Source: an uncultured Verrucomicrobiae bacterium (lineage in GTDB: Bacteria; Chlamydiota; Chlamydiia; Chlamydiales; Rhabdochlamydiaceae). Taken from it: DNA of 64,000 nt. Below the pieces are notes generated by a model. That model saw nothing but the letters and a program-made list of their open reading frames with translations, made no database searches and was not told where the DNA came from. How positions within the stretch are numbered: the stretch's first letter is position 1; every line of letters begins with the position of its first letter. Where the stretch lies: contig OY970364.1 in the NCBI GenBank assembly GCA_963718565.1, positions 1,088,001-1,152,000 on the forward strand, in the 5' to 3' direction. Positions 59,728 to 62,700 of the stretch are shown here, piece after piece. Both the position numbers and the translations under genes were made by a program.

Positions 59728-62700
59728 ATGACGCGCAGACAATCCTCTTCCCCCCACACATCTTCTTCCGTAACCCAGCAACCCTCTAATGCGCTGTCAA
59801 CAGCAGAGATTTCCTCTGCGTTAAAAAGAGAGGCTAACATTATGGACAAAATGCAACGTTTCACCGTCGTGAAACGCAATGGCAGCCTCGTGCCTTTCCG
59901 TCGAGAGAGAATTTTCCGCGCTATCGAAGCCGCCTTTCGCGATACCAAAAAAGTGTTCAAAGATCATCCTCTGCCTCAAGAACTGCTTCAAACAGTCGAA
60001 CAGATCACAGACCTAGTCATCACCGATCTGTTTGCGCTCGCCTCCAAGGGCGCATCGTTGACCGTCGAAGGGATTCAGGATCAAGTCGAAGTGTGCCTAA
60101 TGAAGGCTGGCCATCATGATCTGGCCAGAGATTATATCATCTATCGCGATCAGCATAAGGCCTTGCGCGAGGATTCCCCCCAGAATTTAAAAATCGTCCG
60201 CGACGACGGCAGCATTGTCCGTTTTAACCCCATGAAAATTGCTTCTTCTATCGAAGATGCTTTCCGGCGGGCGGACCATCTCGAGGGGCCTGCTACTGAG
60301 CAAATCGTCGATGCGGTGAATATGTTGACGCAAAAAGTCGTTGCCAAGGCTGTCGCTCTTTCCAAAGCTGGGCATCTTCTCAATATTCCATTGATTGATG
60401 ACGAGGTCGAGCATCAACTCATGAAAGAAGGTTTTTTCAAAGTTGCGAAAAACTTTATTCTTTATCGGGCAACTCTCGGAGAACAAGGCAGCTCTTCCTT
60501 CGAACATGTCTTCCCTTCCGAAGAAAAGAAACAACGCCATTTTATTATTGTAGGGCCCAATAACACTTCGCGAACGATCACCGAAGCACAGCTCCTTAGC
60601 CGTCTCAAATTTGCGTGTCGGGGAATCGAAGAGCTCACTTCCGCAGAAGAGCTGCTCGAAAATGCGATCGGTAATTTCTACGAAGGAATCAAAGAAACAG
60701 AGGTCGACCAGGCCAACATCATGGCCGCTCGCACAAAAATCGAAATCGAGCCCGCTTACTCCAAAGTAGCAGCGCGTCTTTTGCTCGATCTTCTGTATCG
60801 CGAAACAATGGAGATCGCCGCTTCTGACCCAAGCATCGAGTCCACCCATCGTGAGTATTTTAAAAAGTATCTCAAGTTTGCAATTAGCGTCGACCGCGTC
60901 AGCCCTGAACTGCTCCAATTCGACCTCGATAAACTCGCCCGTGCCATGCAATTGCAGCGCGACGACCAATTTACCTATCTCGGACTGCAAACTCTTTACG
61001 ACCGTTATTTCATCCATCACGAACAGCGCCGTTTGGAAACTCCCCAAATTTTCTGGATGCGCGTCGCCATGGGACTTGCGCTTAACGAAAAAGAGGAGCG
61101 CACAGAACGAACGATTGAATTTTACGATATCCTCTCTAAATTTCATTTCTGTTCGGCGACACCGACTTTGTTCAATTCCGGCACCAATCATTCTCAGCTC
61201 AGTTCCTGCTATCTCTCCACTGTGATGGACGATCTGGCACATATTTTCAAAGTAGTCGCCGACGATGCGCAGCTTTCCAAATGGGCCGGAGGCATTGGCA
61301 ATGACTGGACCAATGTTCGTGCCACAGGAGCAACGATCAAAGGAACCAATGGCAAAAGCCAAGGCGTCATCCCCTTCTTAAAAGTCGCCAATGATACTGC
61401 CGTAGCAGTGAATCAGTGTTTTGATCCGGACACGCGCATCTTCACAGCAGAAGGGATCAAACCGCTTGCCAATGTTAGCTGCCGGGATCTTGTATTAGGG
61501 GTGAGTGGAAACTACCGCAAAGTGGACAAACAAGCATGTTTACAACCAAAAAGATCCGATGGTTGCCATTGAGATTAAACACTCTATTGAACCTCTTCGC
61601 GTCACGACAGCTCATCCGTTCTATGCGATTCAAGGCGTGCCTCAAGAACAAGCCAACGAAAGAACCCATCACTGGCTTGCGAAAGGCAAAGTGCGCTCCG
61701 CCTGGGTGGAGGCAAGTCAGCTCAAAAAAGGCGATTATGTCGCACAGGTCATCCCCAAAGAAATTGTCCCTGTTGCCAATTTCACAGAAGAAGATGCACG
61801 CCTCTATGGAATCTTACTGGGAGATGGCCATGTATCCAAAGGGGGATTGCAATGGGGTGTTTCAGGCAATCCTCAAGTCGATGAACACCTTGCATTTGTC
61901 AGAGAATATTTAGCACAAAGAGGCATCCATTTCTTGGAAACAAAAAGAGGTGACTCCTATCTTCAGATCCACTGGTCAGCAGGAAGAGGGCTTGTGCGCG
62001 ATGCGACAACTGGACAGTACGCCTCCTCAAGAGAAGCTCATCTTCCTTTCGAATACGACGATCTTTACGATGCTGAAAAGTGCAAACATATCGCTCCCCG
62101 CTTTGCTCATTTGCCAAAGCCGCATACCCTTGCTCTGCTTCAAGGCTTATTGGAAACTGATGGAAATGTCTCGCGAGGCAAAGAAATCACTTTCAGTAAC
62201 ACTTCATTACACTTGATAGAAGGGATACGCTACCAATGTCTGCGCTTAAGGATTCCCACTGCGGGCAACCGCCGCGTGAGAAACAATGCGCACACAGCCC
62301 GCCGTTCTGATGGATCGACCACGGAGTTTAAGGGAACAACAGTCGCCTACGATCTCCGCATCCCCGCTTGTAAAGAGCTAGCCGATAAAGTGGGATGTCA
62401 ACCGATCTATAAGAAAAATTGGCTTGAAACTGAAGGTTTTGTGTGGAGCCGCGTTGCCTCTGTCCAACACATCCCAGAATCTCCCATTGTATGCGATCTT
62501 GTCGTAGAAGACGATGAATCGTATATGACAACAGCAGGATTGGCCCATAATGGAGGAAAACGTAAAGGAGCGATGTGCGCCTATCTCGAAACATGGCATC
62601 TCGATATCGAAGATTTTCTTGAATTGCGCAAAAATACCGGCGATGAACGCCGCCGCACGCATGATATGAATACAGCAAACTGGATTCCCGATCTGTTCAT

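Follow-up and report, generated by a model that had tools for sequence, protein, structure and literature searches.

A LAGLIDADG intein followed by glycine in specificity loop 2 of the only class I ribonucleotide reductase of a Rhabdochlamydiaceae bacterium

Introduction

A genuine, mobile intein of the class 1 type, equipped with a LAGLIDADG endonuclease, interrupts the only class I ribonucleotide reductase (RNR) large subunit of an uncultured bacterium of the Rhabdochlamydiaceae, and the residue that follows it is a glycine. For canonical protein splicing, a Cys, Ser or Thr nucleophile is required at this +1 position. The explanation that we hold, with slightly more confidence than doubt, is that of a genuine loop-2 intein with a true Gly +1, whose exteins would be ligated through the amine of this glycine and whose frame breaks in the present assembly are errors of that assembly. 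The parts of this explanation differ in strength and are considered in turn below.

Results

The intein and its junctions

The window, i.e., the whole stretch of 64,000 nucleotides that was analyzed, contains the following features of nrdA.

59728..61416, + strand: N-extein of nrdA, open reading frame in frame 1, ending ...VAVNQ
61417..62551, + strand: intein with LAGLIDADG homing endonuclease, 1135 nt (378 codons and one extra base in this assembly)
61417..61419, + strand: Cys1 codon TGT, block A, from the translation; Cys in 8 of 8 relatives
61525..61531, + strand: frame break within the intein, frame 1 to frame 2, one surplus base
61604..61615, + strand: block B T-x-x-H (TTAH), from translation and alignment
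61802..61834, + strand: LAGLIDADG motif 1; G150 and G152 nearly invariant in the intein alignment
62135..62170, + strand: LAGLIDADG motif 2, Pfam LAGLIDADG_3; T262 and G264 nearly invariant in the alignment
62486..62551, + strand: blocks F and G, with the block F Asp at 62495-62497 and the terminal His-Asn at 62546-62551
62552..62554, + strand: Gly +1 codon GGA, first residue of the loop-2 motif GGKRKGA
62552..64000, + strand: C-extein of nrdA, running past the end of the window; six frame pieces in this assembly

The N-extein comprises two ATP-cones and the all-alpha domain and extends into the first part of the barrel (Pfam: ATP-cone 4.2e-35, Ribonuc_red_lgN 1.5e-26). The barrel family Ribonuc_red_lgC is matched at its positions 1-72 immediately 5' of the insert and at 66-296 immediately 3' of it. 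In the large subunit of this class I RNR, the insertion falls within specificity loop 2, where it separates the Gln of NQGGKRKGA from the first Gly that follows. Seventeen relatives without the intein read VAVNQGGKRKGA without interruption, with VAVNQ/GGKRKGA at the insertion point (the slash marks the junction), so that removal of 61417-62551 restores the loop exactly, as the first-pass annotation had stated. Its junctions, Cys1 at 61417 and Asn/Gly at 62551/62552, are confirmed by the translation; the terminal Asn codon is AAT (62549-62551), and the first residue of the C-extein is Gly, encoded by GGA at 62552-62554. The element had further been described as intact. Cys1, TxxH, the block F Asp, the His-Asn and both LAGLIDADG motifs are indeed present, but the 1135 nt of the element do not form an unbroken frame.

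That this is a LAGLIDADG intein in RNR loop 2 is borne out by the motifs, by Pfam and by the predicted structure of a relative. In Pfam, LAGLIDADG_3 is matched at 1.7e-7, above its cut-off, and the Hint families at 1e-5 to 1e-6, below theirs. Open inteins of 377-378 aa are present at the same site in 8 relatives. For one of these (G001), the intein with 15 aa on either side was modeled by AlphaFold with a pLDDT of 85.6 and a pTM of 0.85, and Foldseek recovered from this model a HINT fold combined with a two-motif LAGLIDADG domain, the best PDB matches being PI-SceI (E 3.5e-19), TliVMA (7qsu, TMt 0.67) and PI-PfuI. The inteins PI-SceI, TliVMA, PhoVMA and PI-PfuI are all followed by Cys, Ser or Thr. 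They resemble the RNR intein in joining HINT and LAGLIDADG domains (1ef0, 1vde, 7qsu, 7qss, 7qst, 1dq3; E 3.5e-19 to 1e-13), whereas the sequence identity is just 12-17%. Furthermore, Cys1 and His-Asn are found in 8 of 8 relatives and TxxH in the alignment, and the insertion is in frame and precisely absent from intein-free relatives, with the broken frame of the window's assembly judged an artefact. A class 1 feature that the element lacks is the Cys, Ser or Thr as first C-extein residue, where Gly (GGA) is found.

Frame breaks in the assembly

In the window's copy, frame 1, which contains Cys1, meets a stop at 61570-61572, and the His-Asn is read in frame 2. Measured against an intact orthologue, nrdA falls into seven pieces, with one break inside the intein, near 61527-61530, and five downstream of it, near 63238-63241, 63453-63462, 63563-63569, 63678-63682 and 63769-63785; the open reading frame that the first-pass annotation had assumed is therefore not found here. 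The break points were resolved by a word-by-word frame map, for which tblastn alone was insufficient. The C-extein is read in the following pieces.

62552..63241, + strand: C-extein piece, frame 2
63238..63453, + strand: C-extein piece, frame 1
63462..63569, + strand: C-extein piece, frame 0
63563..63682, + strand: C-extein piece, frame 2
63678..63785, + strand: C-extein piece, frame 0
63769..64000, + strand: C-extein piece, frame 1

Six frame breaks within 2.5 kb would fit a decaying nrdA pseudogene, a dead allele in which the intein is of no further consequence, and the closest relative assembled as one contig (G005) likewise has stops in the region. Nevertheless, each nrdA piece still matches RNR with E values of 1e-14 to 1e-87, and near-identical metagenome contigs put the frame right at three of the six breaks. 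The base at 61527 is absent from two of these (X1 record 4, 151 nt, 0 differences; X3 record 18, 314 nt, 2 differences), X1 and X3 both omit one base at 63680, and X3 omits one at 63774; the breaks near 63240, 63460 and 63565 are bridged by none of the contigs. In addition, all four other frame-switch clusters that were examined fall in highly conserved neighborhoods, namely tuf-nusG-rplA-rplJ-rpoB-rpoC, gyrB, SNF2 helicase/mreB and rpsB/tsf. The underlying list of 191 candidates among 776 same-strand changes is noisy, with ordinary gene overlaps among its entries, and only these four dense clusters, checked by open reading frames and Pfam, were used from it. Across the genome, 1.24 of 2.28 Mb still lies in open reading frames of 350 aa or more, of which there are 790.

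Since tuf, rpoB, rpoC, gyrB, rpsB and tsf are shattered in the same manner, which a living cell could not bear, and since near-identical contigs lack the extra bases, the six nrdA breaks are very probably local assembly or consensus errors and no sign of gene decay. This is shown indirectly, from the contigs and the other genes, the best sequencing run having contained 0.31 of the sampled words. The pseudogene reading, which we regard as highly improbable, was rejected on the contig evidence and on the same breaks in other essential genes. The frame breaks also call for caution with this assembly, whose most conserved genes contain local errors.

Selection and the need for a functional enzyme

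A dead allele is equally hard to reconcile with the RNR content of the genome. A second intact RNR, which the first-pass annotation had named as a sign of such an allele, was not found in the window's genome: matches to PF02867 are confined to this locus, no NrdD is present, and nrdB is intact. In five of five relatives tested (completeness 93-100%), the intein-bearing nrdA forms an open frame of 1463-1498 aa, PF02867 has no other match, and NrdD is again absent.

The intein itself is, judged from coding-sequence comparison, under purifying selection. Between the window's genome and G001, pN is 0.094 and pS 0.626, and dN/dS is 0.075, a ratio to be read with the fact that most pairs show saturation at synonymous sites and only a few yield a finite dS.

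Glycine at the +1 position

Local errors do exist in this assembly, and a miscalled codon at the C-terminal junction would be one way to explain the glycine. However, Gly is found at +1 in 34 of 34 intein-bearing nrdA junctions of the order (11/11 and 23/23; HN/GGKRKGA). It is encoded by all four Gly codons (GGC 11, GGT 5, GGA 4 and GGG 3 among the 23), and the His and Asn codons of the junction also vary synonymously among relatives. A soil-metagenome contig (X1 record 5, 564 nt, 62212-62775, 5 differences and no gaps) bridges the C junction, and among the differences listed for it none falls at 62548 or 62554. A freshwater contig (X5 record 28, about 85% identical) carries T>C at 62548 and A>G at 62554; both changes are synonymous and thus keep His-Asn-Gly. 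The Cys, Ser or Thr codon after the Asn that the first-pass annotation had proposed to look for is hence supported neither by metagenome contigs nor by relatives, and a sequencing error at this codon has a negligible probability. In this intein lineage, Gly +1 is shown to be genuine and conserved.

Nor is the glycine a peculiarity of this genome, as it had first appeared, since a large intein family normally has Gly at +1. In the wider family, about 49 of 68 junctions have Gly and 19 have Ser, counted in the best 150 of 294 family matches, a sample biased by the choice of a Gly +1 query toward its relatives. Only two changes of the +1 residue are needed on a tree of 64 inteins, in which the Gly clades lie deep.

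The loop-2 intein family

A phmmer search gave 294 matches at E<=1e-3, 63 of them at E<=1e-30. The members of the family are homologous in sequence and are inserted after the Gln of (N/D)Q(G/S)G(K/R)R, directly before the Gly or Ser, and the intein described here is one of them. Within the genus, it is carried by 8 of 18 species; the sample for the phylum comprised 401 genomes, of which 52 have it. The host whose sole RNR carries the intein is a soil bacterium. In the phage collection there was one weak match, with 31% identity over residues 1-125, to an unannotated uncultured phage record, and a related-locus scan with the single intein protein of G001 returned only G001's own record.

RNR inteins with Gly +1 C-exteins are already tabulated, as the first-pass annotation had guessed, in Additional file 3 (sheet RNR_RIR) of Green, Novikova and Belfort (2018; PMC5784728). 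As given in this table, the inteins of Pandoravirus inopinatum, P. salinus (intein 1), P. dulcis and Cedratvirus A11 occupy the same site (YVDQ/CF or YVNQ/CF) and have C-exteins GGGKRKG or GGRRKG, i.e., Gly +1 as here, whereas their hosts are giant viruses. The RNR alpha intein of Cafeteria roenbergensis virus (CroV; InBase entry; PMC5784728) lies, as read from the table, at the same point (YVNQ/CFTPDT...GIVHN/SGRRKGS) and likewise has Cys1, His-Asn and full size with an endonuclease-length insert. It differs in its viral host and in its C-extein starting with Ser, which makes the canonical mechanism possible. In the main text of PMC5784728 the word "glycine" has 0 occurrences and the remarks on nucleophiles are general, so that Gly +1 is listed without comment. 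PMC4465626 (2015) describes a cultured bacterium whose class I NrdA contains a LAGLIDADG_3 intein of about 359 aa, in a passage that gives no junction residues.

A discussion of Gly +1 inteins was not found in the literature searched, which had subscription journals outside its scope. The search for an RNR intein in Chlamydiae gave unrelated papers only, and the Anaeramoeba paper PMC10710043 held no passage relevant to the question.

Discussion

How the exteins could be joined

As Gly +1 is true and RNR needs this glycine, the textbook takeover of the N-extein by a +1 side chain is impossible for this intein. Two live explanations follow, an attack of an amine on the Cys1 thioester or cleavage only.

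In the first, the usual thioester would form at Cys1, cyclisation of the terminal Asn would cleave the C junction, and the alpha-amine thus freed on Gly +1 would, while retained in the active site, attack the thioester. The outcome would be an NQ-GG peptide bond without a seam. This is the most likely mechanism, although we would put it a little short of an even prospect. Against it stands that in standard inteins a change of +1 to Ala or Gly abolishes splicing.

A possible marker of special chemistry was sought in block F. Many inteins use a block F His, though it is missing in this lineage (DDESY). The loss was rejected as a marker of Gly +1, because this His is retained (NHNY) in the viral GGGKR subgroup, also Gly +1, and in 16 of the 19 members with Ser +1. 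Gly +1 members thus exist both with and without this His, and no sequence signature of special chemistry is apparent.

A close analogy is that to bacterial intein-like (BIL) domains, which reside in variable, non-essential proteins. For those of type A, an N-terminal thioester, Asn cyclisation and attack by the free amine have been proposed in this order (Dassa 2004; Aranko 2013; in PMC4031507). According to the section of that paper dealing with them, these domains resemble the RNR intein in the His-Asn at the end of their HINT domain and in lacking a nucleophile at +1. They are, in contrast, small and without homing endonuclease, and mostly cleave, whereas the RNR intein measures 378 aa with a LAGLIDADG endonuclease, occupies a conserved site of an essential enzyme, the sole RNR, and is polymorphic in presence like a homing intein. 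In the same section, the cleavage products of type A BILs outweigh the spliced product; an essential enzyme would need a far better yield, which speaks against the amine route.

Cleavage without ligation is the main rival to ligation by the amine. Here, the intein would cut at both junctions, and RNR alpha would work as two non-covalent chains nicked in loop 2. Without a +1 nucleophile, HINT domains by default cleave at their N and C termini, and Friedrich and co-workers are said to have described in 2007 a functional genes-in-pieces NrdA in a phage. Type B BILs, as summarized in PMC4031507, cleave only, in line with the prevalence of cleavage in type A. However, a nick in loop 2, through which allosteric specificity signals pass, would be expected to leave some trace, whereas the 16 aa of flanking extein are identical or nearly so between 11 intein-bearing and 17 intein-free relatives, which fits a seamless product. 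The strong conservation of Cys1 would also matter less if hydrolysis sufficed. A two-chain RNR therefore appears rather unlikely, though it deserves serious weight.

Canonical splicing through a downstream nucleophile (Cys +9 or Ser +7), or removal of an intron at the RNA level, is very unlikely. A Cys at +9 (GAMC or GALC) occurs throughout this bacterial order, but across the family this position is A, F, G, C or T, and Cys +9 was rejected as nucleophile for this lack of conservation; the enzyme would moreover lose its essential GGKRKGA motif if splicing went to +9. Removal at the protein rather than the RNA level is favored by the reading frame of the insert, which continues that of both exteins in every open relative, by its HINT fold and by the conservation of Cys1 and His-Asn.

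Meaning for inteins and their hosts

Contrary to the textbook rule of Cys, Ser or Thr, an intein under purifying selection precedes a glycine in an indispensable enzyme, and the same layout is found in dozens of species of the order as well as in many other lineages. Either real inteins are capable of a ligation compatible with Gly, or RNR can function despite a permanent nick in the specificity loop.

It is conceivable, at somewhat less than even chance, that a large and old family of homing inteins routinely ligates its exteins without a +1 side-chain nucleophile. If this is true, the alpha-amine of Gly +1, or other chemistry, would act with sufficient efficiency to mature the only RNR of many bacteria and giant viruses, and this would constitute a fourth mechanistic class of protein splicing. 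A ligation compatible with Gly, if it exists, would be useful for traceless protein ligation, since a Gly junction is far less restrictive than a Cys.

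Organization of nrdA and its intein

The genome is present as one contig (2.28 Mb, 43.6% G+C), and its only PF02867 locus is nrdA, coding for the large subunit of class I ribonucleotide reductase (RNR). Here, a LAGLIDADG intein is inserted in specificity loop 2:

59728, + strand: start of the nrdA ORF, in which Pfam identifies two ATP-cones, an all-alpha domain and the RNR barrel
61417-62551, + strand: intein, N junction at 61416/61417 after ...TAVAVNQ, C junction at 62551/62552 after ...TTAGLAHN

Both junctions lie where the first-pass annotation had placed them. The RNR barrel is split accordingly, positions 1-72 being aligned upstream and 66-296 downstream of the insert. 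All of the intein features listed earlier from the sequence alone are present as well: Cys1, TTAH as the TxxH of block B, two LAGLIDADG motifs, the block F Asp and the terminal His-Asn. The element had also been called intact, which does not hold for this assembly. Its length of 1135 nt exceeds 378 codons by one base. Frame 1, which includes Cys1, ends in a stop at 61570-61572, and the remainder of the intein is read in frame 2. Mapped word by word onto the intact orthologue of the relative G001, the gene is split into seven in-frame pieces; the six breaks between them are near 61527-61530, 63238-63241, 63453-63462, 63563-63569, 63678-63682 and 63769-63785, and nrdA as assembled has no single open frame.

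In eight relatives, open inteins of 377–378 aa with Cys1 and His-Asn are found, and in six of these (G001, G008, G009, G011, G023 and G038) nrdA is a frame of 1445–1498 aa without stops. The structure predicted for the G001 intein with 15 flanking residues per side (20-row alignment; pLDDT 85.6, pTM 0.85) has endonuclease-bearing inteins as best PDB matches, namely PI-SceI (E 3.5e-19), TliVMA (TMt 0.67), PI-PfuI and PhoVMA. On the level of Pfam, LAGLIDADG_3 is above its cut-off and Hint-type families (1e-5 to 1e-6) are below theirs. Between the window's intein and that of G001, pN is 0.094, pS 0.626 and dN/dS 0.075 (flanking exteins 0.03), synonymous sites being saturated in most other pairs.

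A second intact RNR, considered in the first-pass annotation as part of a case against its reading, was not found in this genome when searched for by PF02867 and NrdD. In all five relatives tested (93–100% complete) the intein-bearing ORF is the sole RNR large-subunit gene, and NrdD was found in none of them.

Frame breaks in conserved genes

A dicodon model was trained on 790 ORFs with a length of 350 aa or more, covering 1.24 of the 2.28 Mb, and used for a genome-wide frame-switching Viterbi pass. The resulting candidate list is noisy, with a few prominent dense clusters of same-strand switches. Four dense clusters, all outside the window, were checked by ORF map and Pfam, and all four fall in the most conserved housekeeping genes:

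Contig C1, 305500-319500 (locus L020): 14-kb block with tuf, nusG, rplA, rplJ, rpoB and rpoC, split into dozens of small ORFs with shifting frames
Locus L021: gyrB, fragmented by frame switches like L020
Locus L022: SNF2 helicase adjoining mreB, fragmented in the same manner
Locus L023: rpsB and tsf, fragmented in the same manner

To our knowledge, genes of the tuf, rpoB, rpoC, gyrB, rpsB and tsf type shattered in this way are incompatible with any living cell. Because no cell would survive this, the clusters represent assembly or consensus errors. The assembly contains local indel errors, which are concentrated in its most conserved genes, and nrdA, likewise very conserved, fits this pattern.

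Furthermore, public metagenome contigs lack single bases of the window. The base at 61527 is absent from record 4 of contig set X1 (151 nt, 0 differences) and record 18 of set X3 (314 nt, 2 differences), the one at 63680 from X1 and X3 contigs, and the one at 63774 from an X3 contig; each omission restores the frame of nrdA. For the breaks near 63240, 63460 and 63565, no near-identical bridging contig was found among the contigs matched. The gene is also broken in G005, G017 and G018 of the same genus. Together with the sole PF02867 locus, the open nrdB directly downstream and the open inteins of the eight other relatives, this is consistent with an artefact, and the frame breaks in the window's nrdA are very probably an assembly or consensus artefact. 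In the freshwater set X5, summed contig depth is 592–1731 over the conserved C-extein (62580-63155) and below 60 in the bins upstream of 62580, which comprise N-extein and intein. Conserved RNR stretches recruit sequence of many other organisms, which may be a source of consensus errors there.

The genome contains further frame-switching patterns. Five copies of a two-frame pattern, about 264 nt followed by about 1386 nt on the same strand (near 523976, 795317, 1041687, 1656834 and 1754277 of C1, outside the window) look like an insertion sequence with a transposase made by programmed frameshift. A pair of frame segments (969 and 230 nt) recurs at window position 43808 and at C1:323730, on opposite strands, and could belong to a mobile element or a repeated gene. 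Within window positions 4700-5200, a same-strand switch at about 4943 with no stop nearby (segments of 317 and 276 nt) may mark another broken or overlapping gene.

Glycine at position +1

We compared 30 nrdA loci from relatives. The 11 with the intein all read HN/GGKRKGA, the 17 without it read VAVNQ/GGKRKGA uninterrupted, and two were unmatched by the junction pattern. Of 401 genomes sampled more broadly from the phylum, 52 have the intein and all 52 belong to one order; the 23 further loci fetched likewise all read HN/GGKRKGA. Here, Gly is encoded by GGC (11), GGT (5), GGA (4) and GGG (3); the first 11 loci again use all four codons, with His and Asn codons varying synonymously. Judged from these codons, this is the expected look of purifying selection on His-Asn-Gly. 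Record 5 of X1 spans the C junction gap-free, with no difference at 62548 or 62554 among the differences listed, and in a freshwater contig of about 85% identity the changes at both positions are synonymous. The Gly +1 first noticed in the window is, on this comparative sequence evidence, real.

Distribution and known relatives

Within the window's genus, 8 of 18 species have the intein. On the intein tree, L011 of G022 (another genus) and L017 of G038 (another family) nest among the copies of this genus, which hints at horizontal homing between lineages.

The part of the intein at 61529-62551 was used as phmmer query against 1.84 billion representatives; 294 matches have E≤1e-3, 63 of these E≤1e-30. 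In the best 150 of the 294, a sample biased towards relatives of the Gly +1 query, the junction pattern recovered 69 sites, one of them spurious; 19 carry Ser +1 (SGKRNGS, SGRRKGS) and the remaining approximately 49 Gly +1 (GGKRKG, GGGKRKG, GGNKRPG), all with the intein's Cys1 directly after (N/D)Q. A tree of 64 full-length inteins, with the same bias, shows only two changes of the +1 residue, deep Gly clades and end branches of up to about one change per site. Therefore, Gly +1 is stable and long-lived rather than a recent accident. The window's element adds one more member to a large family of RNR inteins with Gly +1. A query of the intein with 15 flanking residues per side also matched an unannotated record of an uncultured huge phage (LR756504.1:437685-438056; 31% identity, first 125 query residues only), and the matching part could represent the N-terminal half of a split intein.

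That such insertions might already be catalogued had been guessed beforehand, and Additional file 3 of Green et al. (2018; PMC5784728) bears this out: in its rows for Pandoravirus inopinatum, P. salinus (intein 1), P. dulcis and Cedratvirus A11, the RNR C-exteins begin with Gly, as in the window. The RNR intein of CroV, which is listed in InBase and tabulated there as well, shares the insertion site but has Ser +1. Glycine is absent from the main text of that study. For Azotobacter NrdA, a LAGLIDADG_3 intein is described in a passage of Robson et al. (2015; PMC4465626) that does not include the junctions. In the literature searched, which did not cover subscription journals, no discussion of an RNR intein without a C-extein nucleophile was found; the Gly +1 family is listed, but unexplained.

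Splicing chemistry

Textbook protein splicing requires a side-chain nucleophile at +1, and since Gly has none, this route is closed. The best precedent, by analogy, is the type A bacterial intein-like (BIL) domain, for which a passage of PMC4031507 proposes an N-terminal thioester, Asn cyclisation and finally an attack in which the C-terminal fragment uses its freed amine, with cleavage products predominating. Likewise, the intein would ligate its exteins by the freed amine of Gly +1, a route to which we give somewhat less than an even chance. A two-chain RNR with a permanently nicked loop 2 appears rather unlikely. The 16 flanking extein residues are the same, or almost the same, whether or not a species has the intein, which weakly favors a seamless product over a nicked loop. 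The remaining probability falls to unknown chemistry or minor rivals. Loss of the block F His as a signature of Gly +1 was considered and rejected, as it does not hold across the intein family.

The splicing chemistry of the Gly +1 family is an easily testable question.
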